Source: a virus
Virus genome (UHGV): UHGV-0097092
Reading direction: 5' to 3' (one strand)
DNA: 44,628 nucleotides
Part shown: positions 7,695 through 30,150 of the stretch, in pieces
Layout of the letters: every line of letters begins with the position of its first letter
Position numbering within the stretch: position 1 is the stretch's first letter
Notes under the pieces: generated by a model
Database searches by the model: none
The model's input: the letters and a program-made list of their open reading frames with translations, nothing else
Told to the model about the DNA's origin: nothing
Translations under genes and position numbers: made by a program

Positions 7695-7727
7695 ATGTTA
7701 GAAAATTAAAATCAACAATCTAACACG
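7695..7727. promoter_or_regulatory. promoter-operator-like palindromic motif, copy A
   Basis: ATGTTAGAAAATTAAAATCAACAATCTAACACG; TTAGA/TCTAA arms around an AT-rich, -10-like core. Confidence 0.45.
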
Positions 7728-7757
7728 ATTTTGAGCGCGTAAACGATGTAACCCGGC

Positions 7758-8441
7758 TTACGGTTGCCCTCCCTTCACCTGCATTAGCGTCAGGTTTCCG
7801 CAAAATACAGCACCAGTATCGATATAATGCTGGTTCCAGAATGCTTTTGGGCTTTTAGCCGGGGTGTGTCCGAAGATAAATCGATCTGCACCTGTAATTT
7901 CTTCACCGATGCCATCTATCGAATCACTAACACGGTCGCGCGACCAGATGACATTGAAAAGCGGCACAGCCTTACCGAACTGATACTCTCTATCCGGATA
8001 GTCAGCATGAGCAATGACAATAGTCTCCTGCCCGGTGTTCAGCTCAATGATATGAGGCAATTGCCTTACCAGCTCCACCAGCGCCCTGGCTAAAACTTCC
8101 TTATCACTATCCAGCATAAAGAACCACTGGCCGCCATTCATTAGCCAGTTATTCACGTTTCCAGCTGGGCTTAACGCATCGATCATCAACCTCTCATGGT
8201 TACCCATGACAGCCCGGAACCAGGGCATTTGCAATAACTCCAGGCATTCGACATTTTCAGTGCCGCGATCGATAAGGTCGCCGACTGATATCAGTAAATC
8301 CTGCGCCGGGTCAAAATCCACACGATGGAGTTCATTCATAAGCAGGGTGTAGCAACCGTGCAAATCACCAACAACCCATATGTTTCTGTATCCTGAACCA
8401 TCAATACGGCTATATAACGCCTGGTCGTTAACGGTGATCAT
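7758..8441 (-). CDS. Ser/Thr protein phosphatase, lambda PPase / PrpA-PrpB type
   Basis: metallophosphatase motifs GDLHGC, GDLIDRG, GNHE. Confidence 0.8.
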
Positions 8442-8665
8442 TCTGCAACATCCTCCAAATCAGCAACCGCGTCCATCACATCAGAACCGCGAATAACTTC
8501 AAAAGCGCGGCAGGCCATTTCAAACACCTGTTGTTCTTGCGGATGCGGTGACTCCCAATACTTAAAACCAGGTCGATGCTCGTAACCCATCATGGAATAA
8601 AAATCGCCAGCAAGTTCAATCGCGGCATCAACAAGTTCGCGATTTGTCATCGTCTGTTCTGTCAT
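8438..8665 (-). CDS. hypothetical protein (75 aa)
   Basis: ORF translationally coupled to neighbours; acidic. Confidence 0.45.
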
Positions 8666-8937
8666 TTGGTTTTCTCCTGTCTGAACATCACTATCATCAG
8701 GTCGCCTTTTGTCGCTATCCTCGCTGTTGTGCCTGGTTCAATGCGGCTAAGTTCAAATGCGTCATAGAACGCCTCCAACGCTTTCTGGCGTTTTTCCTGT
8801 TTGCGGCGCTTTCCCCACTGCTTTAGAAAAACAGAGGCCGCCCACTTCCCCGCACTGAACATGATGTAAAACCAACCGAGAAGTGCCAGACCGGTATTTA
8901 GGAGCGTATCGATCGTTATTGTCGTGTCGATATTCAC
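8662..8937 (-). CDS. small membrane protein
   Basis: 91 aa with a hydrophobic helix (LLGWFYIMFSAG) followed by a basic stretch. Confidence 0.45.
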   Translation of the reverse strand: MNIDTTITIDTLLNTGLALLGWFYIMFSAGKWAASVFLKQWGKRRKQEKRQKALEAFYDAFELSRIEPGTTARIATKGDLMIVMFRQEKTK

Positions 8938-9650
8938 TGGTTGCCTCCTTTGCGAAGCTGGTCGGCGAACAAACGTACACCAGACGCTTCACTGCGTAGA
9001 AACTTAACGGCATAATCAAAACCACCTCGTTCTGCGTCGTCTGCTGCGTTGTCGAGGTTATCTGCGTACATCTCTACCCCCTGCGCACGCACTTCAGCCA
9101 GGAAAGCGTCGGTGGCTGGGGTTTCAACACGGATGCTGTCGCGCAAGATGAAAAATGCATTGAGCATTCCTGTCTCTGGCACTTCATCCTGATGCTTCTC
9201 ATACGCATCAAGAGCCTTCATCATCTCAGCTCCGAATGGTTGAGGGTGCACAGACTTCAGCTCCGCATTCTCCGCCGCCAGCACCACGCGTTCGCTCTCC
9301 AGTTCTGCAATGCGCTGTTTTGCGGCATCAAGTTCAATCGATAATTTTTCCAACTGCTCTTTATGCTTCTTGTATTCCTGATATGCGTGCCAAGACTGAC
9401 CTTTGCGCACACTATCCGTGATATCAGTAATCTGTTCTGGTGTTAGCGTGGTCAGTGGCTGTGCTGGGAAAATCAGCACTTTGCCGGAATCCCAATCAAA
9501 ACCAGCGTGAATTGACTGAACCTCAACTGATGGTGTTGAACCGATGCGACCAGGCGAATGAACAACGATCGTTACATCCATATCGCGACGATGGCTGTGG
9601 TTGTTGGACAAAATACGATTCACCAACTCAGAAAATTTGGAAAATTTCAT
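8934..9650 (-). CDS. Ead/Ea22-like protein (start taken at ATG 9650)
   Basis: shares the C-terminal module and the 3' junction sequence cactggttgcctcctttgcgaagctg with 5741..6358; ATGA overlap with the upstream gene. Confidence 0.55.
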
Positions 9651-10009
9651 GCTGATTCCCTTTGCTCTTCCTGGATAATGTTGTTGCAATCTTTCACGCA
9701 CTCGTTGCAGATGAAGACGTTGTCCCCGGCAATTAACTTTTTAACGGTGTGCTGGGATTTGTTGCAGAAGCTGCAATAAAGCGTTGGACTGGTTGATACG
9801 GATGGTGCGCCAGATGTCAGCCGCGCGATGTCGTTCTTGCGACGCAATATCACACGGCTGAACTCAACCAGCTTCTCCGGGGATATATCCTCCTCCGTAG
9901 CGAGCGTTTCTAATCGTTCGAGTATGTGGAAGGCTTTTTCCTGGGTAATCCTGGGTAATTCAGCGTTACGCTCTGCCAGTTGTGCGGGCGTTAAACCTTC
10001 AGACTTCAT
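9647..10009 (-). CDS. protein with C-terminal ClpX-type C4 zinc-finger domain
   Basis: [39 protein letters not shown] closely parallels the ClpX N-terminal zinc-binding domain. Confidence 0.6.
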
Positions 10010-10316
10010 GCACTCTCCTTTCGAAATAAACGTACTGATTAATCATGCCCAGGGGCATTTCGAGTTTTTCCGCGATCTCACGGCGGGGAACGCCGCATTG
10101 ATGAAGTTGCCGCGCCAGCTCTATATCGCTCTGCCGATATTTGGCTGACTGGTGAAAGTCACCTTTCAGAATCATTCTGATCCCCAGTTCCCGCGCTTTA
10201 GTCCTGACAGCATCTCCGGTACGCCCGATCAGCCTCCCAATACTCTCGACCGTCATAGTTCCGGCGCACTGGCGGAGTATCATGATTTCTGCCCTTCCCC
10301 ATCCCCGCCAGCTCAC
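9999..10316 (-). CDS. small DNA-binding (helix-turn-helix-like) protein
   Basis: 105 aa; HTH-like segment [26 protein letters not shown]. Confidence 0.45.
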
Positions 10317-10936
10317 GCCGACATCCTCTGAGACATAAACTCCACAAAACGAACTGCATCTTCAGAAACAACGCCGCATGACTTCAGATAATTCATTGCG
10401 TCATTAGGTAGCGGATTAGTTGGTTCGGCATTTGCCAGGGATTGAGATAAACGCGTGATTAATTTGACCATTCTCCGCTGTCGGAGGTTGTATCCTTCGG
10501 CTAAAGACAGGTAACTGGAAAGGGTATTGCTTAGGCGAGCGCGAAGCTGATCCGTGCCGTGACATTCAATAGCAACATCACGTAACGCATCGACCAGTTC
10601 GCGGTAAATATGCGCTGCCATTCTGCAATCTGTGTCAGATGGCGCTTCATAAATTACCGTCAGCTCCAGTTTTTCAGCCAGGGCGTGTTCTGCTCGTGCT
10701 CCTGCGGACGCTTCCCAGCCCTTAAGCAGATAGATAGCATCAGCAGAACGCACCATTGCCAGGCAAATATCCATGTATTCACTCTGACAAAGGCCACCAG
10801 GTAACACCGCTGGATTCAGAACGATATGCCCTTCAGCCGTCAGCTCACTCGCCTTCGCATTAAACGCCGCGCGGTTGTAATCTGGATAACCAGTCATCGG
10901 ACCCGCGATGTAAATTTTCAAAACACGTTTCACCAT
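10313..10936 (-). CDS. DUF4406 / nucleoside 2-deoxyribosyltransferase-like protein
   Basis: start MVKRVLKIYIAGPMTGYPDYN; IAGPMTG motif typical of the NDT-like fold; extra C-terminal region. Confidence 0.5.
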   Translation of the reverse strand: MVKRVLKIYIAGPMTGYPDYNRAAFNAKASELTAEGHIVLNPAVLPGGLCQSEYMDICLAMVRSADAIYLLKGWEASAGARAEHALAEKLELTVIYEAPSDTDCRMAAHIYRELVDALRDVAIECHGTDQLRARLSNTLSSYLSLAEGYNLRQRRMVKLITRLSQSLANAEPTNPLPNDAMNYLKSCGVVSEDAVRFVEFMSQRMSA

Positions 10937-11091
10937 CAAAATTTCCCCAGCATCGTGACGCAAAACATAAGCACTGCAAAAAGCTCAATACCAAGCTCAA
11001 GTAGCGCCAACGCGCCGAAAAACAGCACATAAAACAGGCCGATCTCATTCACAGGTGGCTGGTGGATCGCACTTAAGGCTATAAGCATCAT
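10936..11091 (-). CDS. small hydrophobic membrane protein (51 aa), first gene of the leftward array; my own ORF call
   Basis: GGAGG upstream; MMLIALSAIHQPPVNEIGLFYVLFFGALALLELGIELFAVLMFCVTMLGKF; stop overlaps next start as TGATG. Confidence 0.35.
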   Translation of the reverse strand: MMLIALSAIHQPPVNEIGLFYVLFFGALALLELGIELFAVLMFCVTMLGKF

Positions 11092-11130
11092 GTCCTCCAA
11101 ACAGTAAACAGCGACTGATATTAATGTTTT

Positions 11131-11163
11131 ATGTTAGAAAATCAATTTTGAATATCTAACAAA
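11131..11163. promoter_or_regulatory. promoter-operator-like palindromic motif, copy B (divergent region)
   Basis: ATGTTAGAAAATCAATTTTGAATATCTAACAAA between the leftward array and the ref-like gene. Confidence 0.45.
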
Positions 11164-11209
11164 TATGATCAATCATAAAAAAATCGCTGATAAGTAAGAG
11201 GCAGCCAAC

Positions 11210-11788
11210 ATGCAGAGACAGAGTTATTGGGAGAAACAGAGACAAAAAGCCATGCAAAAACTGGCTGATCCGGAATGGCGGGAAGAGCAAAGGGCAAAAC
11301 GTCTTCAGCAGGCTCAACGCCAGCAGCAACGCGCAAGGGAAAAAGCCGCATCGCCTGAATATCGTCAAAAGAAACTTGAAAAAGTGAGGCAAAGTGAACA
11401 GCGCAGAAGAGAGAGGGCGGCGTCAGCCCTCCCCAAAAAAACGCGCCCGTCACGCGGATTAAAAGGGAGATCACTCACAGCAGAAGAGCGCCGGATACAG
11501 GACGCTATAGGCAAACTCCCCTGTATTGCCTGCCATCTTCACGGGAAGCATAGCCCTGTCGTATCTCTCCACCACATATTTGGCAGAACGGCTAAAGATG
11601 CCCATAAATACGTTCTCCCTTTGTGTAAATGGCACCACCAGCACGCAGCGCCAGCAGAGATCCGCGAACAATATCCCTGGTTGGTTCCTGTTCATGCTGA
11701 TGGAAAAATAGGCGGGAAAGCAGATTTTATACGGCACAATGCCGAAGAGATGACGCTCTATCAGACGGTGCAAGAAATGGTGAATTAA
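11210..11788 (+). CDS. ref: Ref-like HNH-type recombination enhancement protein
   Basis: basic Gln/Arg-rich N-terminal region plus C-terminal Cys/His core (LPCIACHLHG...LPLCKWHH), matching the P1 Ref architecture. Confidence 0.55.
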   Translation: MQRQSYWEKQRQKAMQKLADPEWREEQRAKRLQQAQRQQQRAREKAASPEYRQKKLEKVRQSEQRRRERAASALPKKTRPSRGLKGRSLTAEERRIQDAIGKLPCIACHLHGKHSPVVSLHHIFGRTAKDAHKYVLPLCKWHHQHAAPAEIREQYPWLVPVHADGKIGGKADFIRHNAEEMTLYQTVQEMVN

Positions 11789-11812
11789 TTTTCTAACATT
11801 TTATGTTGAGTT
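11789..11812. promoter_or_regulatory. degenerate reverse copy of the operator-like motif, copy C
   Basis: TTTTCTAACATTTTATGTTGAG immediately after the ref-like stop. Confidence 0.3.
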
Positions 11813-11916
11813 TGAAATTTACTGATTGTACATTTTGATTAGATTGGTTCACCGCTCGACGCAACGAGACAAATCCTCAAGGATTTCGTATGATTGCCAA
11901 TGTCATAGTTATGGCA

Positions 11917-11975
11917 GCGCAATACAGGTGGCTAAAAGCCCCCGTTGACTCACGGTGTTCCAACCTGTATTGCGC
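11917..11975. repeat. perfect 13-bp inverted repeat GCGCAATACAGGT / ACCTGTATTGCGC with a 33-nt spacer
   Basis: read directly; embedded in a possible 35-aa ORF (11891 onward). Confidence 0.5.
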
Positions 11976-12119
11976 CGCCACCAGACCGTGGAACAGTCTG
12001 TGACGGCTTCGAAAGCAAGGAGTCACTATGAACAATTACAAACTTTTCCCATCACTCACCGTCTACTCACGCAATAACCTGCGTTCTTTGCTCCCATCAA
12101 AACTGGAGGGAGTATCAAA

Positions 12120-12287
12120 ATGACCGTTCGCTACCTGAATTATCAAATCCAGAACATCACTGGCGGTTGCTATGACTGGTTTGTCACTCTCGGAAAAGAA
12201 GTGATTACAGGGAAACTGGATGAAGTGAAAGCTAAGGCGTTGGCTTATGCCTGTAAACAATCCATGAAAATGAAAAGAAAAAAATAA
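12120..12287 (+). CDS. small hypothetical protein (55 aa), my own ORF call
   Basis: GGAGGG 7 nt upstream of ATG; MTVRYLNYQIQNITGGCYDWFVTLGKEVITGKLDEVKAKALAYACKQSMKMKRKK. Confidence 0.35.
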   Translation: MTVRYLNYQIQNITGGCYDWFVTLGKEVITGKLDEVKAKALAYACKQSMKMKRKK

Positions 12288-12344
12288 CAATGGGAACAAT
12301 CCGCCCCACTCCGCTATAAGGTGGGGCGGCATAATTAATACTGG

Positions 12345-12737
12345 TTAAAACTCACCTGCACGCTGTTTTTCAAGCACAGATTTAACATTTGGCGCTTTAC
12401 CCTCAAAAGAATGGAAAGTGCCACATTTTTCTGTCTTCACCTCGCGCAGAGCTTCGCCATCGGCATTCTGCCATTGATGGGATAATGTCATATCACCGCG
12501 AGAAGGAACATCAAGCGAGTACAGCGTATAAGTGCCTCCCATCTCTGCATATTCCTGGAACACATAACTCATTACGTCAGATTCAGTTTTACGATGTGCG
12601 TTATCGACCTTATTCCCGTTCAGAAATATAGCGTTTGGATAGATTTTTATATCAAACTGACCGCATTTCACTTGCAGATTCCCAGCGTCTGCCAGCAAAG
12701 GAAAAGCAGCCAATAAAGCAATAGCCAATCTTTTCAA
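12345..12737 (-). CDS. exported protein of unknown function
   Basis: 130 aa with signal peptide MKRLAIALLAAFPLLADA. Confidence 0.5.
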   Translation of the reverse strand: MKRLAIALLAAFPLLADAGNLQVKCGQFDIKIYPNAIFLNGNKVDNAHRKTESDVMSYVFQEYAEMGGTYTLYSLDVPSRGDMTLSHQWQNADGEALREVKTEKCGTFHSFEGKAPNVKSVLEKQRAGEF

Positions 12738-12757
12738 TTCTGCCTCCGCTGCGTAAC

Positions 12758-13381
12758 TTATTGCCCGTATTTTTTACACCATTGCTCTGCCATTTGTTTG
12801 GCTAAAGGCCCGGCTACTGCACTGTATTCTGCTGTTTTACTTTGCACACATGAAGCAGATGGTTTTTTATTTCGCTGCTCGGTTAGTTTGCGCTCATAAG
12901 CCATCATGCTATCGAACCCGGCAATATCACTTTGGCGAAGCATTCCCTTTTTAACCAAAAATTGCTGCCCCTCTGGCACCAACGCAAGCATAAAAAGTGG
13001 TTGCAATAACTCACCTAATCCTTGCTGGCGATACACTTCGAATTGCTGCCATCCCTGACTTAATCTGGAAAGAGTATCTTTGGTTGAATAACCTGTTTTT
13101 GTTATAGCTTTGTCCGTCAGATATGCTGTATATGCAAAAACGCAAAAGTCAGTTTTACCAATAAACTGAGTTCCAACAGGCCGTAATGGAATGCCCTCCC
13201 TCTTGCAAAAGTCCATAATGGCCGCTTGTGAATGATCCCCACCAGCGTTATTCATAACCTGCTGCCCTGCCCTGAATTGTGCAGGTAACGCAGTTGCATT
13301 GGCAGTATTAGCAGATACGCATCCCAACATAGCCGCGAGCGCGGCCCCTAAAACCCTTAACTTCACTACACCATCCTTCAT
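12758..13381 (-). CDS. exported protein of unknown function
   Basis: 207 aa with N-terminal signal peptide. Confidence 0.5.
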   Translation of the reverse strand: MKDGVVKLRVLGAALAAMLGCVSANTANATALPAQFRAGQQVMNNAGGDHSQAAIMDFCKREGIPLRPVGTQFIGKTDFCVFAYTAYLTDKAITKTGYSTKDTLSRLSQGWQQFEVYRQQGLGELLQPLFMLALVPEGQQFLVKKGMLRQSDIAGFDSMMAYERKLTEQRNKKPSASCVQSKTAEYSAVAGPLAKQMAEQWCKKYGQ

Positions 13382-13597
13382 GTAAACAAAATGAAGTTTT
13401 ATGTTATAAAAACAATTAACTACATCAACATGATTTAGGCCAAATTTCGGTCAAAAAATAAAATCCACAAAAAGTGGTTGACACTATTTTGGAAATCACA
13501 AACTGCACATAATCCATCGCGCTAACGGCTCCCGTTGAAGGTTCTTTTGACGATTAACTTTCAGCCGAAGCGCGGTAGGGAGTCATAACGCCAAAGC

Positions 13598-13622
13598 AGG
13601 CCGCCATGTGCGGCCTTTTTTT
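13598..13622 (+). terminator. intrinsic terminator-like hairpin plus T7 run on the plus strand, 28 bp upstream of the next start
   Basis: stem aggccgc/gcggcct, loop catgt, then ttttttt. Confidence 0.5.
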
Positions 13623-13649
13623 GTATCCGTCATCCGTGGAGGAAGGACA

Positions 13650-14303
13650 ATGGAAAAGATCGCAATATTCAGCCTGACCACCAGCAAGCCTCAAATGCTC
13701 ACTGCAATACTGAAAGACGGTGCTCTCATTATTAACGAAGTAAAACCCCTTCCCGCGTCAGCATTGGAGCAAAAGCAAAAAATTCCTCCAGCTATAGCAG
13801 CCCTGCGGAAAAGCAAATTTAAGGTACTGGTAGACGAAATTACGCCAACGATCTCCGCTGGCACCGGAGCAAGCCAGGTTACTCTCAAGACCCGTCATGC
13901 CGATGGCAGAGCAGCAATCATCGTCGGGATGGAAAGATACAGAGAGTTAAAACTCCAGAAGCTATTATCCCTGCCGCAAAATAACAAAGGTGCTTTCGAA
14001 ATCCCTGACTCCATCGTTGACACCGAATACAACGGTAACGGAGAAGAAGTCTACCGGGTGAACTGGCAGGATATCAGGCCGGAACATATTCTGATGGTCC
14101 TGTGTTGCTACGCGACCGTATACCACAACGTTGCCAGTGCAGATTACGTAGAGCAGATGACCGGCACAGTCGAGAAAGAGCAAAAAACAGGCATACTCGC
14201 TTCGTTCCTGTCCATTATTGGGCATGAAAAAGTTGAAGCAGGCACCTCCCAGCCAAAGTCACTGGCTGGGAAAGAAGTTGATGAAGATACCGTGATACTT
14301 TGA
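13650..14303 (+). CDS. hypothetical protein (218 aa)
   Basis: ATG with GGAGGAAGG upstream; no recognised domain. Confidence 0.5.
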   Translation: MEKIAIFSLTTSKPQMLTAILKDGALIINEVKPLPASALEQKQKIPPAIAALRKSKFKVLVDEITPTISAGTGASQVTLKTRHADGRAAIIVGMERYRELKLQKLLSLPQNNKGAFEIPDSIVDTEYNGNGEEVYRVNWQDIRPEHILMVLCCYATVYHNVASADYVEQMTGTVEKEQKTGILASFLSIIGHEKVEAGTSQPKSLAGKEVDEDTVIL

Positions 14304-14631
14304 TCACATTAGTAGCTTTGTTAACTCCCTCAATACCAGGTAGAAGAGTAACAAAAATATTGACGCCAGTATTTGAGTGGACAATGAAGCGTTCATAAAC
14401 AGATCAATTAGCATTAATAATTCGAAGATAACATCCATGTCATTCACTCCGTTTAATTTTTAATCTAATGCCAGCAAATGAAGCTGGCCCCCGCATAAAG
14501 ATTAATGAAAGTCACTTGTCACCAGTGAGGGGATTTATGAACCACATCCCCCTGAACTGGTGGCCAGTCTGTTTCTCGCATTTCACACCCTGCATACAGT
14601 TTCCACCAGGTTATGACTGAGAGGCTTTGTT

Positions 14632-14961
14632 ATGGGCTATAGCAGACTCGACGATAGGTACATTGAAGACGATATTTTTCGTGCGCTGTTTCACCAGGAA
14701 ATGATTAAGCGGGTATCGGAGTATCACTCTGATAATTTCCAGTACACGATAAAGATTGATGAAGTATATCGTTCAGACCTTGCAGCCTACAGGGCGTATG
14801 GCAATGCAGATTTGCGCTGGGTATTCCGGGTGCTGGTGGGCCATGAGTCAGAAATGGAAGAAATGCCCGCCGGGACCACGTTAACTCTTCCTGATGTCGC
14901 ATGGCTGAGGAACAAGATCCGTGATTACGCGAGCGCGGAACCGGAGATAGAAAATGCCTGA
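14632..14961 (+). CDS. hypothetical protein (109 aa)
   Basis: ORF with GAGAGG upstream; 8-bp overlap with the next gene. Confidence 0.45.
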   Translation: MGYSRLDDRYIEDDIFRALFHQEMIKRVSEYHSDNFQYTIKIDEVYRSDLAAYRAYGNADLRWVFRVLVGHESEMEEMPAGTTLTLPDVAWLRNKIRDYASAEPEIENA

Positions 14962-16150
14962 TTTCCTGAAAAACCAGGACGGGCGCTATATCACTGATGG
15001 CCTGTCCTCTAAGGACTTCACGCGTTTATTCGACCTTATCAGTAAAGAACAAACCCGTAAGCGCCGACAAGCTCACCGGACGCTGACGCCCGGCAGACTG
15101 AGGAACAAATCCGCCGAAGATATTCTCAAGTTGGGGAAGAAGAAAGGCGGCACGTTCTTTACGCGAGACGATCTGAAAGGCTTCGAAAAGCTACGGAGTA
15201 AAACGCGCGAAAAATATGACAGTAAGACGGCAGGCATCACATACGCCCAGCTGGTGGCATCCAGCCAGGCTATCGATATTAAGCGTGCAAATAACGCCGT
15301 GGATGACGGATCTGGTATCAAAAGAGCTACACCCGTATCTCTTCGCCACAATGTGATTAATATCCGCGTAGAAGCATCGGATATATCCGTCCACCAGCAC
15401 CATATCGTCCGTATACGCTTTGAAGAATGGGATCAGATGGTCGATGACATCGCAGAAGACGATAAATCAGCTCTGAAAATCACTAAATCACTGTGCGCCG
15501 GGCGGGTGTCTTTCGATTGTGACTGTGGTCGTCATCAATACTGGTATCGTTACATCGCTACTGCGGGTAACTTTGCCTTGGCCCCGCCAAAAGAATACGC
15601 CTATCCAAAAGTTCGTAACCCTAAGCTACAAGGCGTCGCCTGTAAACACGTGATCCACTCAATGACGCGGTTACAGTCCGCCAGTTGGCAAATGAGTATT
15701 GCTCGTGCGTTACAAAAGGCCGCAACGCAAATTGCATTTGGTGACGATCGCCGCCGTACAACTAAACACTTCTCAAAAGAAGACGAGAAGGAGTTTAATC
15801 GCAATCGTAGCAGTAAAACGAACGTTGAAGCCGCCAAACGCGAATGGAGGCTCTATCAGAAACGCCAGGCCGCTTTAAGCACAAAACTGGCAAAGGACAA
15901 CGGGAAGATTGACAAGCTACGTGACCAGCTGACCAGGGCCAGAAAGTTGTCCGATGCACAGAAAAAACGGGCAGCAGCAAAAGAAGCAGCCTTGCAACGT
16001 GAGAAACAGAAAAACAAGGAGCTTCAGCAACGCCTTGCCGATCAATTCGCACTGAAGAAGCAAGCGTTCATTGATGCACTGGTCATGGCAGGAACGTCAC
16101 CTGAGCAAGCTGAAAAAATGTTTATGGAGTACGTGAAGAAAGGTTCTTGA
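14954..16150 (+). CDS. hypothetical protein with CxC...CxH (SWIM-like) metal-binding motif and C-terminal coiled-coil/basic tail
   Basis: 398 aa; FDCDCGRH ... CKHVIH; C-terminal KR/Q-rich heptad-like region. Confidence 0.5.
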   Translation: MPDFLKNQDGRYITDGLSSKDFTRLFDLISKEQTRKRRQAHRTLTPGRLRNKSAEDILKLGKKKGGTFFTRDDLKGFEKLRSKTREKYDSKTAGITYAQLVASSQAIDIKRANNAVDDGSGIKRATPVSLRHNVINIRVEASDISVHQHHIVRIRFEEWDQMVDDIAEDDKSALKITKSLCAGRVSFDCDCGRHQYWYRYIATAGNFALAPPKEYAYPKVRNPKLQGVACKHVIHSMTRLQSASWQMSIARALQKAATQIAFGDDRRRTTKHFSKEDEKEFNRNRSSKTNVEAAKREWRLYQKRQAALSTKLAKDNGKIDKLRDQLTRARKLSDAQKKRAAAKEAALQREKQKNKELQQRLADQFALKKQAFIDALVMAGTSPEQAEKMFMEYVKKGS

Positions 16151-16926: not shown

Positions 16927-16995
16927 ATGAATTGAAATCACAATCTCCAGACAATGCACCCTCGATACCTGATAAATCGACCTTTGAGGATGCTT

Positions 16996-19535: not shown

Positions 19536-20185
19536 AGCGTAGAGCGCAAATTGTTGGAACTGTGCACCCGGCAGGGCTTATGCGTGCTCAGGTCCGTGTT
19601 TTACCAGACTGGAATGGCGTTCCTGATGACGATCTACCCTGGGCAGAATACCTGTTACCCATAGGTAACGCGTTTGTACCTACAGTAAAAGGCGACCTGG
19701 TATGGGTAGAGTTTCCTTATCTGGATGTTAATGGTCGAATTGATACCAGACGCCCAATGATAGTTGGCGCAGCTCAGGATGCGCCTGGCGGAGTACCAAA
19801 CGTCGCGCCGGAGGCGTCAGGCAATGGTAGCGGCTGGACGCCACCAGAAGTAGACGGAGCGCCTCCCCGCCCGCAATTTTCGGCGACAAAAGATTTCGTG
19901 ATTCACCGCAACAATGTGCTCGAAGTGCGAACGGCTGGCGGTGGATATGAAATAGCGAATACGGCAGCAGGCTCAAGGATTGGAATGAATGAATCAGGGC
20001 AGATATACATCATTGGTCCGGCTGATGTAGTAGTGAATGCGGGAGGGAGTGTTAACGTCAAATCAGCCGATAACATCAGCGTTAATGGCAAAAACATTAC
20101 TGTGACAGCCGACGAAAATATTGATTTCAAGGCTGGAGGCACCTTCCAGGCTATCGCAAGCAACTTTGATTTCAAGAAGGGATAG
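19532..20185 (+). CDS. baseplate central spike (gpV / gp5-like OB fold plus beta-helix)
   Basis: N-terminal GTV...VRVLPDW...LPIGNAFVPTVKGDLVWVEF pattern; C-terminal repeats (VNAGGSVNVKSADNISVNGKNITV). Confidence 0.55.
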   Translation: MKRRAQIVGTVHPAGLMRAQVRVLPDWNGVPDDDLPWAEYLLPIGNAFVPTVKGDLVWVEFPYLDVNGRIDTRRPMIVGAAQDAPGGVPNVAPEASGNGSGWTPPEVDGAPPRPQFSATKDFVIHRNNVLEVRTAGGGYEIANTAAGSRIGMNESGQIYIIGPADVVVNAGGSVNVKSADNISVNGKNITVTADENIDFKAGGTFQAIASNFDFKKG

Positions 20186-20194
20186 AAAACACAT

Positions 20195-20238
20195 CCAATT
20201 GTGTTAGATAATTGAATAGAATTTTCTAACACAATTGG
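20195..20238. promoter_or_regulatory. promoter-operator-like palindrome, copy D
   Basis: CCAATTGTGTTAGA-16 bp-TCTAACACAATTGG; spacer holds GATAAT and TAGAAT hexamers; 7 bp upstream of rdgC. Confidence 0.5.
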
Positions 20239-20244: not shown

Positions 20245-21150
20245 ATGAGATCAGTCGCTTTCAAAAACATCTTCATCTATCGTCTTTCACGTGAAGTTAA
20301 CTGGAGTGCCGCAGAAGTATCCGATGCTCTTAGCAAATTCGTGTTTACTCCTTGCGGTTCTCAGGACACAGCTAAAGTCGGTTGGACACCTGTTCTTGGT
20401 GACAACCTCACCCATGAATACCAGGGTTTTCTGCTAATACAGCATAAGCGAGAAGAAAAAATTCTCCCCTCGCAGGTGCTCAAGGAAGAGTTGCAGAAAA
20501 AAGTCCTGAAACTCGAAGAAGAGCAAGCCCGCAAGCTGAAGAAAACGGAAAGAGACAGTCTTAAAGATGAAGTCCTGCATTCACTTTTGCCTCGCGCGTT
20601 CACGAGAAAATCACTCGCCAAAATCCTGATCGACCGCAGCAACCATCTGGTATTCGTTGAGGCAAGCAGCGCCAAAAAGGCAGAGGACCAGCTGGCTTTA
20701 TTGCGAAAGTCGCTCGGCAGCCTGCCTGTCATTCCATTCACACCACGCGAACCGCTGGAAATTACAATGACCGAGTGGTTTAAAAGCGGCTTCCCTGCCG
20801 GATTTACAGCAGGTGAAGACGCCACATTAAAGGGTCTGCTCGATAATGGTGGTGCCGTTCGCTGCAACAAAGTTGATCTACAGTCCGACGAGATTATGTC
20901 TCACATTGAGGCGGGGAAAGTAGCTACGACCGTTGCAATTAACTGGATGGACCGTGCGTCGTTCAGAGTCAACGATGATATGAGTATCAAAGCCCTGACA
21001 TTCTGTGATGATCTCTATGACCAGAACGACGATATCGACCGGGAGGATGTAGCACAACGATTTGATGCTGATTTCGTGCTCTTTACGGGTGAATTATCTG
21101 CACTGTTTAACGCGCTGGTGGAGGCCATTGGCGGTGAAGCAGAACGATAA
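20245..21150 (+). CDS. rdgC: recombination-associated protein RdgC
   Basis: full-length similarity to recalled E. coli RdgC ([68 protein letters not shown]). Confidence 0.85.
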
Positions 21151-22712: not shown

Positions 22713-22745
22713 AAAACGCCGCAGTAGCGGCGTTTACTTTTTCAT
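22711..22745. terminator. bidirectional rho-independent terminator between dam (+) and glnS (-)
   Basis: stem acgccgc/gcggcgt, loop agta, A-run on one side and T-run on the other. Confidence 0.55.
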
Positions 22746-22760
22746 GTGGCGAAATACCTA

Positions 22761-24422
22761 TTAACCTAACTTCGCCCAGGTATCACGCAGCCCAACGGTG
22801 CGGTTAAATACCGGTTTTTCCGCCGTAGAATGGCGGCTGTCGAGGCAGAAATAACCTTCACGCTCAAACTGGAATGCTTTACCCGCTACCGCTTCTTTCA
22901 GCGACGGTTCAGCAAAGCCTTGTTTGATCACCAGCGATTCCGGGTTAATCACCGACAGGAAATCATCCGCAGCACCAGGGTTCGGCACGCTGAACAGACG
23001 GTCGTACAGACGGATTTCAACCGGCAGCGCATGTGCCGCGCTCACCCAGTGAATAACACCTTTGACTTTACGACCATCTGCCGGATCTTTGCTTAAGGTG
23101 TCGGCGTCATAAGTACAGAAGATGGTGGTGATATTGCCTTCGGCATCTTTCTCCACGCGTTCAGCCTTAATGACGTAAGCATTACGCAGACGCACTTCTT
23201 TACCCAGCACCAGACGTTTGTACTGCTTGTTAGCTTCTTCTCGGAAATCGGCGCGGTCGATCCAAATCTCACCGCTAAACGGCACCTGACGGCTACCCAT
23301 TTCCGGTTTGTTTGGATGGTTCGGCATGGTGACCATTTCGCCTTCGCCCTGGTAGTTTTCGATAACCAGTTTCACCGGATCGATAACCGCCATTGCGCGC
23401 GGCGCATTTTCGTTGAGATCTTCACGGATGCAGGATTCCAGCGACGCCATCTCAATGGTGTTGTCCTGCTTGGTCACGCCGATGCGTTTGCAGAACTCAC
23501 GAATAGAAGCCGCAGTGTAACCACGACGACGCAGACCGGAAATGGTCGGCATACGCGGGTCATCCCAGCCTTCAACGTGCTTGTCGGTCACCAGCAGGTT
23601 CAGCTTACGCTTGGACATCACAGTGTATTCCAGATTCAGGCGCGAGAATTCGTACTGGCGCGGGTGAACAGGAATGGTGATGTTGTCCAGCACCCAGTCG
23701 TACAGGCGACGGTTGTCCTGGAACTCAAGCGTACACAGAGAGTGCGTAATACCTTCCAGCGCATCGCTGATGCAGTGGGTGAAGTCGTACATCGGGTAGA
23801 TGCACCACTTGTTGCCAGTCTGGTGGTGTTCAGCAAATTTAATACGGTACAGCACCGGATCGCGCATCACGATAAACGGTGAAGCCATGTCGATTTTCGC
23901 ACGCAGGCAGGCTTTACCTTCTTCAAAACCACCGGCACGCATTTTTTCGAACAGCGCCAGGTTCTCTTCAACGCTGCGGTCGCGGTACGGGCTGTTTTTA
24001 CCCGGTTGCGTCAGGGTGCCGCGGTATTCGCGGATCTGTTCCGGCGTCAGTTCATCAACGTACGCCAGGCCTTTATTGATCAGTTCGATCGCATAGGCGT
24101 GGAGCTGATCAAAATAATCGGAGGAGTAACGGACGTTACCAGACCAGTGAAAACCTAACCACTCTACGTCGTTTTTGATCGACTCAACATACTCGATATC
24201 TTCTTTTACCGGGTTAGTGTCGTCGAAACGCAGGTTGCACTGGCCTTTATAGTCCTGGGCGATCCCGAAGTTCAGGCAGATAGATTTCGCATGGCCAATA
24301 TGCAGATAGCCATTTGGTTCCGGCGGGAAACGGGTATGTACTGTGGTGTGCTTACCACTGGCCAGATCTTCATCGATGATCTGACGAATGAAGTTAGTCG
24401 GGCGGGCTTCTGCCTCACTCAT
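22761..24422 (-). CDS. glnS: glutaminyl-tRNA synthetase, near-identical to E. coli GlnRS as recalled
   Basis: 553 aa; N-terminus [52 protein letters not shown] and VMSKR class I motifs. Confidence 0.95.
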
Positions 24423-24690
24423 TGTGGATTCCTCAAAGCGTAAACAACGTATAACAGCGTATGATCTTATAAGCCGAATAGGCTGACAACCACTAGTTGA
24501 TTAGAAATTGCTTTCTATCGTTATTTCAATAATGAGCTTTTTCATGAAGCCCACTTTTGCGCATAAGTAAATTAATGACAAATGGTGCACAATTGGCACC
24601 AAAAAGGATGTAAAAGTGCACCAAATTAGTGGTATATTGGTGCACCTTTGGTTCAAAACTTTTTAAGTTCTAAAACCAACCTGAAAGACT

Positions 24691-24978
24691 TTATTTTGCT
24701 TCCTCAGACTCCGCTAACATGAGGATAGCATGGCGGATCATATTCAATTTGCTGCGATTATGCTTTTTGCTTAACGCATCAAGTACCTGGTACTCGTATT
24801 CATTGAAGCCAACACGAATGGATTTAAAATCACGTGGGGCGTCCTTATCGAGCACTTTGTTGTCTTCTGGTTGCTCACCCGGCACCAAATCAGCTTTGCT
24901 GGCAAAAGCCTCAATTCGGCGTTCAAGATCGAGGTCTTTTACTTCGGGGGCTTTTACCGATTTACGAGGCTTAATCAC
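24691..24978 (-). CDS. ParG-like ribbon-helix-helix centromere-binding protein
   Basis: 95 aa; C-terminal RHH-like KSIRVGFNEYEYQVLDALSKKHNRSKLNMIRHAILML; downstream of and overlapping the ParA-like gene. Confidence 0.5.
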   Translation of the reverse strand: MIKPRKSVKAPEVKDLDLERRIEAFASKADLVPGEQPEDNKVLDKDAPRDFKSIRVGFNEYEYQVLDALSKKHNRSKLNMIRHAILMLAESEEAK

Positions 24979-25612
24979 TTAATAACTCCTTAACCAACAT
25001 CTGGATTTCACCTTTAGCTTTCCCGTTGTCCATCTCAACAACGCCCTTCCCTTCAGCCATACAATCGCGGTAAACCTTGCGATCGCGAATGATGGTTTTC
25101 AGCAACTTCAGTTGCGGATATTCAGCCAGGTACTCTTTGGCCTCATTGGCTTCATTCACAACCGGATTGGATGGGGCCATTGTTAAGACTGCGCACGCCT
25201 TAATGCTAGGATTAGGCATCAGATCCAAAGCCTCTTCAAAGACTTCAACAAAATGCGCCAGAGTGTCTAAATCTGGCTGAGATGGCCTGAATGGAACAAG
25301 CAAAACATCCGCCGCAGTAATACCGGTGCGCATTTCTTTGCTATCACGACCAGCGGTATCAACAACCACAAATTCATAACGCTTGTCCAGATCAAGAAGT
25401 GTTTCACGAATATTCCCAAACTTCTGGACGCAATGAATTACTGGAGAAACCTCTGCCGCATTACGGTCCGATGCCCAACGGGCAGATGTTCCTTGCTTAT
25501 CTGCATCAAGTAGAACTACGTCCTTATTTGCGCGGGCAAGCTCCGCACAAATATTTACGCTGGTGGTTGATTTGCCACAGCCACCTTTTTGGCTGGCTAC
25601 CAATATAATCAT
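24971..25612 (-). CDS. parA: small ParA/ParF-type Walker ATPase (type Ib partition)
   Basis: start MIILVASQKGGCGKSTT (deviant Walker A); about 213 aa; GAGG upstream. Confidence 0.8.
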   Translation of the reverse strand: MIILVASQKGGCGKSTTSVNICAELARANKDVVLLDADKQGTSARWASDRNAAEVSPVIHCVQKFGNIRETLLDLDKRYEFVVVDTAGRDSKEMRTGITAADVLLVPFRPSQPDLDTLAHFVEVFEEALDLMPNPSIKACAVLTMAPSNPVVNEANEAKEYLAEYPQLKLLKTIIRDRKVYRDCMAEGKGVVEMDNGKAKGEIQMLVKELLSD

Positions 25613-25645
25613 ATCCGTTCCTCGGTGTGATTTTGGTATCAAAAC

Positions 25646-25830
25646 GGTTCCAGATAAGAGCCTTTTTGATGCGGGACAGGCTCTATAATGGAGTCATGAA
25701 TGTTTGGCAAAGTATAACATCAATCAGACCAAATACACCTTATATTGCATCCTATTTAACACGAAATCAGCCCCAAATTGGAACCAGATACAAAATTGCA
25801 CCACAACAGCACCTAACTGGTTCCAGATTA
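25646..25830. repeat. three GG(T/A)(T/A)CCAGAT repeats in the region upstream of the ParA-like gene; candidate centromere/operator
   Basis: GGTTCCAGATAAG (25646), GGAACCAGATACA (25780), GGTTCCAGATTAA (25820). Confidence 0.35.
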
Positions 25831-25855
25831 ACACCAATTAGACACCATTAATGCA

Positions 25856-25880
25856 TAAAAAAGGCTGCAATTTGCAGCCT
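25856..25880 (-). terminator. rho-independent terminator downstream of parR (minus strand)
   Basis: stem ggctgca/tgcagcc, then T-run on the minus strand. Confidence 0.5.
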
Positions 25881-25899
25881 TAAACCAGCACATCTTCTG

Positions 25900-26244
25900 T
25901 CAATCAGGTAGAGAGTCAGCCAGATTGCGCGCCGACGCGCTTTTGGCAACAACTTGCTCCTTCACTGGCTCAATGGAGGCAGGGCGCTCCTCAACCGCAG
26001 CTGGTAGTTCCAGGAAGGATGCCAGCATTTTTCGGATCAGCTCCGGGTTATTGTCTTCGGTCAGCAGGGAAGCCAGTAATCCTGGAAGCCTGCTATCGAC
26101 TTCTCCCAGCGCAAGCCCTGCCAACAATGCGGTTCTTGCCATATCGCTATGTTTTTTTATCTTCTCGCTAGCCGCCTTTTCATTGGCATAAGCCTCTGGG
26201 CGAAGATAAATCATCACTTTCTTACGTTCCTGAGACATGGACAT
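25900..26244 (-). CDS. parR: ParR/StbB-like partition adaptor
   Basis: KVMIYLRPEA...RTALLAGLAL...PGLLASLL aligns with recalled R1 ParR. Confidence 0.6.
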   Translation of the reverse strand: MSMSQERKKVMIYLRPEAYANEKAASEKIKKHSDMARTALLAGLALGEVDSRLPGLLASLLTEDNNPELIRKMLASFLELPAAVEERPASIEPVKEQVVAKSASARNLADSLPD

Positions 26245-26251
26245 TACCTCG

Positions 26252-27191
26252 TTAACCGATTGCTTTCAGGCCATGAACAAGAGCAAGTTGCGGGTCATCC
26301 GCCACGAAGAAACGGTCATCACGAATATTAACTTGCTCGCGAATTGCATCTGCCACCAGCGGTGCGCCACCACCGATCACCATGACATGCGTATATCCTT
26401 TAAAGAACGCGGGTACGCAGACGGTCAATGCTTGCGGCAATGGCCTTTTTCACATCACCAACCGCTGATGGGTCATTGATATTGTCGTTCAGATAATCTT
26501 CATCGTGGCGGTTAATAATGAGCTGATCGACATTGTAATTTGACGTTTCGGTATTGGCTCTGGCAAGTGCTTGCCTTACTTCCCTGGTAACCAGAGAGAC
26601 GCCAAGATTCGAATCGCCAAAAACACGGGAAACTGCCGTCATTTGCCCGGCGACCATTGAAACATCAAGGGTAGTTCCACCCAAATCGACGATAAGAACA
26701 GAATGGGCAGGGTTCAGATTGTCGCACAGGCCAATTCCTGCCGGAATAGACTCCGGGCGTACCGTAACTTTCTTAATCGTGAACACATTGCCTTTATTCA
26801 GCGTGACGGGGCGCATAAGGCTGGCTTTCTTGCGCTCGATGTTATCGAGATTGTATTGCGCGTCGTCGTCGTAAAACTCCGCCAGAGGCAGCGTGACCAC
26901 AATTTCTACTTCCTGCGGCTCAATGCCACTTGTCAGCAGGGCATGGTGAACAGCCAGGACGTTAAGCGGGCTGTATTGCCATTCCACGTTATTCGTCGGC
27001 AGAACATCTGGCGAGATCAAATCATACGAATACTTTTCGTCGTCAATGACATAGTTAAACGGCTTGCCCGCACCAAATGTTGCTGACCATCCGCGCTTAA
27101 AGCTGTTAGGGCTGATGTGAGTGCGAGTTTCCCCGTCGTGCTCCCACAGCATTTTGATATTGGTTGAACCATCATCGATAAAAATGCGCAT
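26252..27191 (-). pseudogene. parM: ParM/StbA-like actin-type partition ATPase, interrupted by a frameshift near 26400-26420
   Basis: N-terminal 263 aa (MRIFIDDGSTNIK...DRLRTRVL) stops at 26400; the conserved C-terminus (GYTHVMVIGGGAPLVADAIREQ...) continues in another frame (26252..26440). Confidence 0.6.
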
Positions 27192-27216
27192 CTTCTTGCT
27201 CCACTTCTGAGACACA

Positions 27217-27372
27217 TTTGAGAATCAAAATGCAATTTTAAAAGAGAAGCAACCAAAAATCCACACCAAAAGAGATAAAAAAGAGTGATTATTGAGTTCA
27301 TTTTGAGAATATCTTAATCACCAAATGAATGATGGTCTGACAGTGAGATTTGTTTGAGAATGAATTGAGAAT
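27217..27372. repeat. parC-like array of TTGAGAAT repeats upstream of parM
   Basis: copies at 27217, 27302, 27353 and 27365, plus degenerate copies (27292, 27411). Confidence 0.5.
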
Positions 27373-27457
27373 ACAAAAATATTCCGAAATTTAACTCTCA
27401 GTTTGAATGACGAAATAACAAAGTGATGACAATAGGAGGATAACCAGGAGATGAAGA

Positions 27458-27742
27458 ATGAGCGCAATAGCCACCAGCGACACCCTTTGTTCTGGTCACG
27501 GAGGATTTCCGCCGCGACTGGTAGCTGAAACCGTTCCCTGGTTCACCGTTAACGGTAAGCCAGTTGTTGTAGATGGTGCCATGTTTCCCAGTCACACTGA
27601 CGGTAACAGTGCACATCCAGGGGCAGCTGTATCGACGCGAGTATGGTTTTCGATAGGTGGAAAGGGAGTTGTCTGTGTAGGCGATCCGCTTTCTTGTGGT
27701 TCTGTTATCGCCAACGGCGAGGATATTTTTCAGGTTGCATAA
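27458..27742 (+). CDS. PAAR-like spike-tip protein (T4 gp5.4-like)
   Basis: 94 aa; CSGHGG...NGKPVVVDG...VCVGDPLSCGSVIANG pattern. Confidence 0.6.
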   Translation: MSAIATSDTLCSGHGGFPPRLVAETVPWFTVNGKPVVVDGAMFPSHTDGNSAHPGAAVSTRVWFSIGGKGVVCVGDPLSCGSVIANGEDIFQVA

Positions 27743-28548
27743 TGCTTGATTCAATAGGTGAAGTTAAAGCCTTCAAAATTCTGTCAGATGCCGGTATCTC
27801 TACACCAGAATCTATAACCATAAGCCGGGCAGCTTCTGTAAAAGCCTCATCGCTCGCCAGCGCCATACAGGGAATAGTTCACGCCGATAAAACCTATCCT
27901 GATTCTGTTTCGGCCTGGACTACTCAATTGCTTGGCTTTTCTGAACAGCTCAATGAGGCCAGCAAAGCGTCTTCATCACTGGCTGATTCTCTTTCCCCAT
28001 ACACCAAGCCATCAGAGCTGTTACAGATGAAGATTGGCTGGGAATGCTACGCAAAAGGTAACGAGCTGACCCCCATACCTGCTTTCGCCCTTGTTGAGGG
28101 AATGGGGAATGTTTCCATTCCGCAATCTCTAACGGACGCATTGACGGCGCTAAAACTTGATGCTCTGAAAACCGCCATGAACGCCATTAACGCAAAAATT
28201 GAAGCTGCCGGAAGTGCTGGTGGTGGTGAAAGCAATGGTGGACAGGGTGGTGCTGGGGGCGCTCAGGCTCCAGTCATTACTCAGGATGAAATTGATGCTT
28301 TACGGGAAGCAGTGACAGCCGCCGAAGTTTTACTCTCCGAAATTAACTCAGCAAGTGAGGGTGTCGTAGCCCTTACAGGTCGCATTAAAACGTCAACCAC
28401 TCAGGCAACCAAAGGTTTAGAGAACGCTGTCGCCATCACGTTAACTGGTTCTCTACTGGATGATGCAGTAATGAGTCCGGCAATCAGTTTAATCATGCCA
28501 CAAGGCGTTATCGATGCGCTCCAAAAGAACACCAAAAAGGAACCATAG
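27742..28548 (+). CDS. hypothetical protein with Gly-rich linker, translationally coupled to the PAAR-like gene
   Basis: 268 aa starting MLDSIGEV; TAATG overlap; central GSAGGGESNGGQGGAGGAQ linker. Confidence 0.45.
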   Translation: MLDSIGEVKAFKILSDAGISTPESITISRAASVKASSLASAIQGIVHADKTYPDSVSAWTTQLLGFSEQLNEASKASSSLADSLSPYTKPSELLQMKIGWECYAKGNELTPIPAFALVEGMGNVSIPQSLTDALTALKLDALKTAMNAINAKIEAAGSAGGGESNGGQGGAGGAQAPVITQDEIDALREAVTAAEVLLSEINSASEGVVALTGRIKTSTTQATKGLENAVAITLTGSLLDDAVMSPAISLIMPQGVIDALQKNTKKEP

Positions 28549-28618
28549 AAACACCACTTAGGCACACAAAAGGATGTAAATTGGTACATGTTTAACACCA
28601 AAAATGAACCTGGAGAGG

Positions 28619-29077
28619 ATGGTTTTGAAAAAGATAATTTTGATTGTAATTGCGCTTTTAGCCATTTCTGGAATTTACCGAACAACGACGGCAGTTATCG
28701 AACACATCAGGTATGTCCGATCGCTTGAAGACTCAAAATCACAACTGGAAAGCACGAACAACACGCTTTCTACCGCATTACAGTTAAGTGAGAACGCTCG
28801 CTCAGCCATGCTGACCGAAAACGAAAGAATTAAAGCACTGGAAAAGGAGTACCAGCGCAAAACAGCAGAACTGAATGCCAACCTAATCAAACAACGAGAG
28901 GAAAGCCAGAATGAAATCACTCGCCTTGAAAATGCGTTGCGCCGTGCTGGGATTAACGATGTGCGTGTGCCTGATGACGTTATCAGGATGCAGCGGGAAC
29001 GGGCAAAAGCCATCAACCAGCGTGCCAGTGAAAATTACCGTAGAAGCCACCAGCAAGCCGCAGGCAAATCTGATTGA
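28619..29077 (+). CDS. Rz-like inner-membrane spanin (i-spanin)
   Basis: N-terminal TM helix (ILIVIALLAISGIY) followed by a long coiled-coil periplasmic region; GGAGAGG upstream of ATG 28619. Confidence 0.6.
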   Translation: MVLKKIILIVIALLAISGIYRTTTAVIEHIRYVRSLEDSKSQLESTNNTLSTALQLSENARSAMLTENERIKALEKEYQRKTAELNANLIKQREESQNEITRLENALRRAGINDVRVPDDVIRMQRERAKAINQRASENYRRSHQQAAGKSD

Positions 29078-29243
29078 TTACTCCCCTTGTTTAGTGCCAG
29101 AGGACACGCCAGTGCTGTTAAACAAGTATCCGACATACGCTGAACAGTTATTCAGCACGATCGACGAATGCAACCAACGAAACGCACTGAATAACCAAAG
29201 AAACAGGGAGATTTGGGAAGGGAAGGGGGATCAAGGCTCCTGA
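28911..29243 (+). CDS. Rz1-like outer-membrane lipoprotein spanin (o-spanin), overlapping the Rz-like gene in another frame
   Basis: signal peptide with lipobox LSGC, Pro-rich mature part; overlapped architecture; true start may be the internal Met at 28932. Confidence 0.5.
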   Translation: MKSLALKMRCAVLGLTMCVCLMTLSGCSGNGQKPSTSVPVKITVEATSKPQANLIDYSPCLVPEDTPVLLNKYPTYAEQLFSTIDECNQRNALNNQRNREIWEGKGDQGS

Positions 29244-29719
29244 AGCCAGATGTCCTGGCTGTCAGCTTCTTCGAAACCGTGACAGACGTTAAAGTCACTC
29301 AAGCGATACTGACGCTGACGGCCTCTATTTCGCTCATGCCAATGCATATATCCACCAGCAAATGCCAGCGGGCAATCGCTATAGTCTATGTAGCCAATGC
29401 CATTCCCCAAACGCGCTTCGCGCGCCCCGGCTTTCCAGGACAGCAGAAAAGAGTCACGATCTGCCAGCATGACAACAAAATCATCCGGATCGCCTATGCA
29501 GTGAAGAATCCCGGCTTTGCACAACTGTTTTAGTGCTTTCGACTGTCCCAGAATGTCTTCACCGTAATACTGAAAACAATCATCAACAACAGCGGGATAG
29601 CCAGCAGGGGGATTCAGGCTGGTTGGTATAGCTGACGCGATCGCCAGCATTAAGCGATATTGTGTTTTTGATGGATTCGCGTGACTCATTTTGCCCCCCT
29701 GTTTACTCATTGTCGCCAT
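29231..29719 (-). CDS. hypothetical protein (162 aa)
   Basis: ORF; Cys/His-containing; overlaps upstream gene by 13 bp. Confidence 0.4.
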   Translation of the reverse strand: MATMSKQGGKMSHANPSKTQYRLMLAIASAIPTSLNPPAGYPAVVDDCFQYYGEDILGQSKALKQLCKAGILHCIGDPDDFVVMLADRDSFLLSWKAGAREARLGNGIGYIDYSDCPLAFAGGYMHWHERNRGRQRQYRLSDFNVCHGFEEADSQDIWLQEP

Positions 29720-30099
29720 GCGTTTTTTAACTCTGGAATATCTGCCATTTCAATTAACTTTCGCAGTCCAGCACTGACTTTCCCGTTGCCAATCACAGCA
29801 AGCCAGTCTCTTACTGCTTTCGGCATATAGAGCGTAGCGGTTACCGGCTCTTCAACTCTCGCCGGGCATCCACATACAGGCCATTTAATTGATTCCATGA
29901 CTTCGGAGGACGGGGTGAGGGCGGGGACATTAAGAATATCTCTACCAGAAAACTGGATGACGATTCGTTCAGCGAGGGAGAGTATCTCACTTTCAGCAAG
30001 AATTGATGCCAGTTGCGCCTCAACAAGAAAGCGGCTCGTTGTGTTCAGGGAGTGGCTTTTCGCGCCATTTTTATACGAAACAAAGATCCGATACGCCAT
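29707..30099 (-). CDS. hypothetical protein (about 130 aa, start MAYRIFVSY)
   Basis: ORF divergent from the capsid gene; start uncertain. Confidence 0.4.
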   Translation of the reverse strand: MAYRIFVSYKNGAKSHSLNTTSRFLVEAQLASILAESEILSLAERIVIQFSGRDILNVPALTPSSEVMESIKWPVCGCPARVEEPVTATLYMPKAVRDWLAVIGNGKVSAGLRKLIEMADIPELKNAWRQ

Positions 30100-30112
30100 A
30101 ACCGTAATGATT

Positions 30113-30150
30113 TGTGTTAGAAAATTAAAATTAAACCACATAACAACACG
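30113..30150. promoter_or_regulatory. promoter-operator-like motif, copy E (divergent region upstream of capsid gene)
   Basis: TGTGTTAGAAAATTAAAATTAAACCACATAACAACACG; shares a 16-bp identical core (GTTAGAAAATTAAAAT) with copy A. Confidence 0.4.

Follow-up and report, generated by a model that had tools for sequence, protein, structure and literature searches.

Dispersed motif sites in a D6-like phage-plasmid as probable operators of a C1-type master repressor

Motif copies and the genes around them

The viral DNA examined here, UHGV virus genome UHGV-0097092 (44,628 nucleotides, the whole of which we call the window), carries a repeated TGTTAGAAAAT motif at boundaries between its genes. Judged by its sequence, the window belongs to a D6-like phage-plasmid of the P1 family: between positions 7000 and 31000 it is 94% identical to Escherichia phage D6 over 91% of the query (megablast), and a 4-kb piece of it is 99.9% identical to the E. 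coli plasmid NZ_CP196102 (92,023 bp; pE below), with which it is collinear, following the reverse strand and crossing the origin of the pE record. D6 is a plasmid prophage related to P1; gene names follow the D6 annotation with its P1 cross-references, the Prokaryotic Genome Annotation Pipeline annotation of pE and the fully annotated P1 record AF234172. A sequence-only reading of the window had listed five copies of the motif and proposed that they form a dispersed regulon of one DNA-binding protein, analogous to the C1 operators or the Lpa late-promoter boxes of P1 but with another sequence. All five are present in the sequence, and we argue here that they are very probably operators of a C1-type master repressor.

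The motif is real. TGTTAGAWAAT occurs exactly six times in the window, against 0.035 expected from 200 first-order Markov simulations, and eight times when one mismatch is allowed (the six exact copies and two more; 1.76 expected), a number reached by none of 100 shuffles. The paired form TGTTAGA-N16-TCTAACA is exact at 7696-7725, 11132-11161 and 20202-20231 (0.000 in the simulations), and four pairs are found in the window with up to two mismatches (0.07 expected). Since the heptamer TCTAACA by itself is not enriched in the window (8 against 4.5 expected), the signal comes from the extended half-site and from the fixed spacing. The enrichment is far above chance, and a motif frequency at the level of the AT-rich background can be set aside.

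As defined from the window, D6 and pE, the half-site is asymmetric and about 17-20 bp long, (T)RTGTTAGAAAAYTAAWWT. The window holds eight half-sites at five loci, all at gene boundaries: two stand singly, at 11781-11800 (minus strand) and 30113-30132 (plus strand), and the others are paired tail to tail, their core starts always 29 nt apart, at 7694-7727, 11130-11163 and 20195-20238. A C/T difference between D6 and the window at operator position 14 was considered as a shift in specificity and rejected, as both variants occur in pE.

The first pair (7694-7727) lies between ppp (7758-8441, minus strand) and the DUF968 gene pdcB (6658-7653, minus strand), and combines a strong half-site at 7694-7713 (plus) with a weaker one at 7708-7727 (minus). 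In alignment it stands out as a conserved island shared with D6, pE and a Shigella plasmid (NZ_CP026818). The second pair (11130-11163) occupies the middle of the 118-bp divergent region between an orf88-like early leftward operon (start at about 11091, minus strand) and ref (11210-11788, plus strand). Upstream of ref the flanks of the Shigella plasmid diverge, while the block GTGTTAGAAAWTCAATTTTGAATWTCTAAC and the downstream GATCAATCATA are retained, as is a promoter-like pair, TTGAAT-17-AATCAT, downstream of the operator. The third pair (20195-20238) lies in the gap of 59 bp that separates tail gene gp5, ending at 20185, from rdgC/hrdC (20245-21150, plus strand), and stops 6 nt ahead of the rdgC ATG. 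Its 14-bp perfect arms, CCAATTGTGTTAGA and TCTAACACAATTGG around 16 bp, are as the sequence-only reading described them, and they are identical in D6, where the central 10 bp differ. The placement of copies before the DUF968 operon, in the divergent region before ref and before rdgC had likewise been given correctly.

The two single half-sites depart further from the earlier description. The copy listed as degenerate at 11789-11812 is in reality a strong minus-strand half-site (11781-11800, 25 bits) overlapping the ref stop codon, and only its N16 partner, TGCAAGA at 11769-11775 inside ref, is degenerate. About 105 bp downstream of it begins a c4-like antisense RNA (11907-11985, plus strand; Rfam RF01695, 39.7 bits, E value 5.8e-6 in a local search, against a gathering score of 45); at gathering thresholds Rfam gave no matches over the window, C4 appearing only below threshold in the local search. 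At the 3' end of ref, D6 carries an icd-ant module, which the window lacks there; a small open reading frame at 12120-12287 was examined as an Icd remnant and rejected, having no similarity to Icd. The c4-like RNA is probably the unit controlled by the 11781-11800 operator, and may be either a remnant or a second immI element standing alone. With no icd-ant present and a c4-like RNA downstream, this operator would therefore join the position of P1 Omat with the role of Oc4.

The other single half-site (30113-30132, 17 identical bases of which, TGTTAGAAAATTAAAAT, recur in the first pair, where 16 had been counted) had been read as a two-armed element extending to 30150, but the supposed right arm, CATAACA, is off by one base and scores at background. 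It does lie before the capsid gene as claimed, between an orf52-like gene (29707-30099 or 30141, minus strand) and capsid gene 23 (30258-31955, plus strand). Control of the capsid gene is another matter: the half-site sits at the 5' end of the orf52-like gene, which it faces, and 126 bp upstream of the capsid gene, which has its own late-type box at 30188-30200. The site probably controls the divergent leftward orf52-orf53 unit and not the capsid gene. In addition, a weak candidate operator (TGTTATAAAAA; TTATGTTATAAAAACAATTAAC) at 13399-13420 (plus strand; 13.7-14.7 bits), in the gap between a simB-like gene and mat, departs from the core by a G-to-T change; D6 has a similar weak site, and by analogy with P1 Omat it may be a low-affinity operator for mat.

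A C1-type repressor and the distribution of its probable sites

The complete relatives place these copies in a much wider set. With a matrix trained on D6 half-sites and a cut-off of at least 12 bits, pE has 16 matches at about 13 loci, 14 of the 16 in non-coding DNA, which makes up 11.3% of pE; another match lies in the first codons of an open reading frame whose D6 annotation starts further downstream. The immunity and early loci lie upstream of c1, lpa, repL, icd-ant, ref and rdgC and at the 3' end of ref. The others are the ppp-pdcB gap, both sides of pmgS, orf52, the simB-mat gap (weak) and the head of the orf117-dut operon, immediately downstream of dre, the homologue of Cre. The loci of D6 are the same, and its icd-ant site lies just upstream of bona fide c4 (69.6 bits) and a1b1 (55.9 bits) RNA elements. 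At least four of the approximately 13 loci are bivalent, with invariant spacing. The sites are genome-wide, as had been proposed.

The proposal that the regulator is not in the window also agrees with our searches: tblastn finds no C1 there, and in pE, from which the position is taken, c1 lies about 4.6 kb beyond the window's left end. D6 orf1 (345 residues), whose annotation notes a similarity to P1 C1, shares 21% identity with that protein over 240 residues (E value 2e-8), and the C1 proteins of D6, pE and P1 all match phrog_1678 with E values below 1e-140; Pfam has no domain in D6 C1 or P1 C1. The pE protein (28112-29149) is 89.6% identical to that of D6. Accessions of the D6 type are WP_047647013.1 and YP_009914678.1, and 149 plasmid records in PLSDB encode such a C1, in several identity classes.

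The positions of the sites tell the same story. P1 C1 is reported to bind at 22 dispersed sites, whose 17-bp consensus, ATTGCTCTAATAAATTT, is asymmetric, and to control repL and lpa (PMC8546580, in which titration of P1 C1 by operator DNA in multicopy was also studied); the lytic genes ref, ssb, dmt, kilA and ban are likewise under its control (PMC4713147). C1 operators annotated in the P1 record are Oref, Omat, Oc4, OrepL (kilA-repL), Odmt, OpmgRa/b and Olpa. Oref is at the place equivalent to 11130-11163; Omat, like the half-site at 11781-11800, is on the minus strand at the 3' end of ref; Odmt, before uhr-hrdC-dmt, is the counterpart of the rdgC operator; and OpmgRa/b, after ppp-pmgQ and before pmgR-pmgS, falls in the region equivalent to 7694-7727. 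The sites before ref, at its 3' end and before rdgC are positional homologues of P1 operators, and the resemblance to P1 goes beyond the analogy that had been drawn. At the same time, the P1 consensus ATTGCTCTAATAAATTT has no match in the window at up to three mismatches, and the P1 genome has no D6-type site. The window sites would therefore not be operators of P1 specificity but members of a heteroimmune class.

Further support comes from plasmids in which C1 itself has changed. The Shigella plasmid NZ_CP026818, with a C1 69.8% identical to that of D6, favours TGTTAGAAATTT; it has 14 extended-motif sites at D6-equivalent loci, and 16 TGTTAGA cores in a 41-kb locus. In the Leclercia plasmid NZ_CP042508 (C1 about 30% identical) the motif is CCTTAGAATCTAT, found in the cre-c1 gap, just downstream of cre and in other gaps, and in the Pantoea plasmid CP009882 (about 28%) it is TTTAGAATTRTGTG, at equivalent places. 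Neither of the latter two plasmids has TGTTAGAAAA at all, and TTAGAATCT occurs four times in the Leclercia locus against about 0.2 expected. The co-variation in these two plasmids is only suggestive. Because the motif follows the C1 class at the same positions, and because P1 and D6 split cleanly, the motif can be tied to C1. The assignment therefore draws on position, homology and co-variation together, and both positions and C1 homology support a dispersed regulon of one DNA-binding protein, akin to P1 C1 operators in another sequence.

Two features of the element stand apart from the operators. A full-length glutamine--tRNA ligase gene, glnS (22761-24422, minus strand), carries the same annotation in D6 and in many D6-like plasmids. 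Chi sites (GCTGGTGG) number 15 on the plus and 16 on the minus strand of the whole window, against about 0.7 expected per strand, and a similar excess is seen in the Shigella, Leclercia and Pantoea plasmids.

Late promoters and alternative explanations

Several observations weigh against operators of a C1 repressor acting on early promoters. A sigma-70 consensus scan of all five sites found a promoter overlapping the operator only at rdgC (TAGAAA-18-GATAAT, with the -10 inside the left half-site) and reported none in 7640-7770 or 11040-11220. It did give a leftward TTGTGA-18-TAAAAT upstream of the 30113 site and GAGACA-17-TATGAT before the c4-like RNA. The other candidate promoters that we propose are conserved but weak matches made by eye, with 8 of 12 positions, and overlap the operators: TTGAAT-17-AATCAT (ref), TTGATT-16-TAATAT (the leftward early operon), TTGTTG-17-TATTAT (pdcB) and TTAACA-17-TTTAAT (orf52). 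Of the "-10-like cores" noted earlier, it can accordingly be said that plausible weak sigma-70 hexamers overlap the operators but that the consensus scan reports few of them. Moreover, the co-variation in the Leclercia and Pantoea plasmids involves only 4-6 sites each, the 30113 site has no P1 counterpart, and the element encodes other DNA-binding proteins (for example a small "DNA-binding protein" and helix-turn-helix (HTH) antitoxins) that are possible alternative binders.

The late operons bear on the question from another side. The late promoters of P1 (11 annotated, all extracted here) have a 9-bp -22 box, AAGTNACTT, then 4 nt and a TAnnnT -10. Only one perfect promoter of this type occurs in the window, at 14499-14519 (minus strand; ACAAGTGACTT-tcat-TAATCT); it points leftward from the interval that separates mat from gene 26, and D6 and pE both retain it. 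Because D6 Lpa shares only 31% identity with P1 Lpa, the late box of D6 could differ from that of P1. In pE, the regions upstream of prt, lydA, R, pmgB, gp23, gp7, ddrB, upfC and mat share AAATCACAAACTG, with a TAnnnT-like hexamer 2-5 nt further on, and TGTTAGA is in none of them. The window has this box, always on the plus strand, at 13493-13505 (exact; mat), 16935-16947 (gp7), 27413-27425 (upfC), 30188-30200 (gene 23) and 38817-38829 (pmgB). Its count in the window is weak by itself (5 against 1.98 expected, with 6 of 100 shuffles reaching 5); what makes the box persuasive is its placement directly before late genes. It is probably the D6-type Lpa-dependent late promoter, distinct from the P1 box.

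These results separate the two analogies drawn by the sequence-only reading, of which that with C1 operators stands and that with Lpa boxes falls, nearly all structural and lysis operons being without the motif. Were TGTTAGA nonetheless a late activator box comparable to the -22 box of P1, the divergence of Lpa would explain its different sequence, the scarcity of P1-type late boxes would fit (although a single perfect box is not decisive by itself), and the site 126 bp upstream of the capsid gene would be in place. We regard this as very unlikely, since the motif precedes the early and immunity genes c1, lpa, repL, c4-icd-ant, ref and rdgC and is absent before prt, lydA, R-S, pmgB-sit, gp7, gp26, upfC, gp22 and gp21; its sites have no -10 hexamer at a fixed distance and occur in both orientations, and in inverted pairs, relative to the downstream genes; and the late operons carry the other box with its own hexamer. 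The P1 Lpa box as such was rejected as the identity of the motif, both sequence and gene set differing from P1 late promoters. A regulator other than C1, whether a phage HTH protein, a corepressor or antirepressor, or a host nucleoid protein on AT-rich DNA, has somewhat more in its favour, in that C1 binding is predicted from sequence, the element encodes further small DNA-binding proteins, and in P1 H-NS also binds the ref regulatory region (PMC4713147). We still think it improbable: an invariant core containing G and C, with an exact 16-bp spacing, is atypical of H-NS, Fis or IHF, a site directly before c1 is as one would expect of an autoregulated repressor, the gene set is that of the P1 C1 regulon, and the motif changes with the class of C1 while the positions stay the same.

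A structural origin, with the palindromes acting as hairpins in RNA or DNA (terminators or processing sites) or marking junctions between recombination modules, is extremely unlikely in our view. The sites do lie at transcription-unit boundaries, a 14-bp stem could form at 20195-20238, and to the right of the site at the ref 3' end D6 and the window differ in their genes. Most loci are nevertheless single half-sites incapable of forming a hairpin, the AT-rich stems enclose 16-nt loops and lack a T-run, a terminator scan found none at any of the five sites, and the arms are kept as sequence, without compensatory changes.

Proposed mechanism and significance

If the sites are C1 operators, the general course of regulation can be outlined. 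In the plasmid-prophage state, C1 would be made from its gene about 4.6 kb outside the window and would occupy sites overlapping or abutting weak sigma-70 early promoters, where it would block RNA polymerase. Within the window this would silence the pdcB/DUF968 early operon, ref together with the divergent early-left operon, the c4-like RNA unit, the rdgC-methyltransferase operon and the orf52-53 unit. Outside the window, C1 would act through the same sites on its own gene (autoregulation), on the late activator gene lpa, on repL for lytic replication and on c4-icd-ant, and inactivation of C1 would then derepress all of these units simultaneously. We infer both C1 as the binding protein and, from its predicted binding, the repression of the overlapping promoters.

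A more tentative idea, and one we hold at less than even chances, is that C1-family repressors fall into several operator-specificity classes with a TTAGAA-like core and differing flanks: TGTTAGAAAAYT in D6, TGTTAGAAATTT in Shigella and Salmonella, CCTTAGAATCTAT in Leclercia, TTTAGAATTRTG in Pantoea and TGCTCTAATAAA in P1. The D6 class may use its N16 pairs for cooperative, dimer-like binding, unlike the P1 mode of a monomer on an asymmetric site. If these classes exist, the elements, many of them carriers of resistance genes, could be assigned to immunity groups straight from their sequence.

D6-like phage-plasmids are common in E. coli, Shigella and Salmonella, and the operator sequence would define immunity specificity and the C1 regulon, predicting which elements exclude or induce one another and permitting annotation of early and late transcription units. 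Repressor and operator would also form a candidate orthogonal pair beside P1 C1, just as the Dre/rox system of D6 complements Cre/lox. Both D6 GenBank records leave the operator sites unannotated, and full-text literature searches for the motif or for D6 operators returned nothing relevant, the primary D6 sequence papers lying outside the search. The result carries the P1 paradigm to a heteroimmune relative, which is useful and not surprising, and involves no new kind of biology.

Comparison with known systems

Like the Lpa late promoters of P1, the D6-type sites are dispersed, short and partly palindromic and stand at the starts of transcription units; unlike them, they have another sequence and no fixed -10, and serve early and immunity genes as opposed to those for morphogenesis and lysis. 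With the CI/Cro operators of lambdoid phages they share, in the bivalent copies, the inverted-repeat geometry, and they would share the overlap of repressor operators with early promoters. Lambdoid operators, however, are clustered at OL and OR and are bound by HTH dimers, whereas those of the D6 type are spread across about 13 loci, with many asymmetric half-sites standing alone, and the putative repressor belongs to a family without a Pfam domain.

The closest parallel is with P1 C1, although the two systems have diverged considerably. The operators read TGTTAGAAAAYTAA in the D6 type and TTGCTCTAATAAAT in P1, and the repressors, only 21% identical, have 345 and 283 residues, respectively. 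P1 Obanab is likewise a tail-to-tail bivalent operator, but in the D6 type the two cores of such an operator start 29 nt apart, 4 bp more than the 25 of Obanab, and bivalent sites account for a larger share of the loci. The orf52/gene 23 site is found only in the D6 type, which is without the ban and ssb sites of P1, and no homologue of the Lxc corepressor was detected in the D6-like plasmid pYU39_89 (PMC6799933). Regardless of these differences, the repressors belong to the same family (phrog_1678), and asymmetric sites of about 17 bp, single or tail-to-tail, are in both cases scattered over a phage-plasmid of about 90 kb, at the same genes: c1, lpa, repL, c4-ant, ref and its 3' end, hrdC/dmt and the ppp/pmgR-S region. 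In both, presumably, one repressor holds all of the early lytic units.

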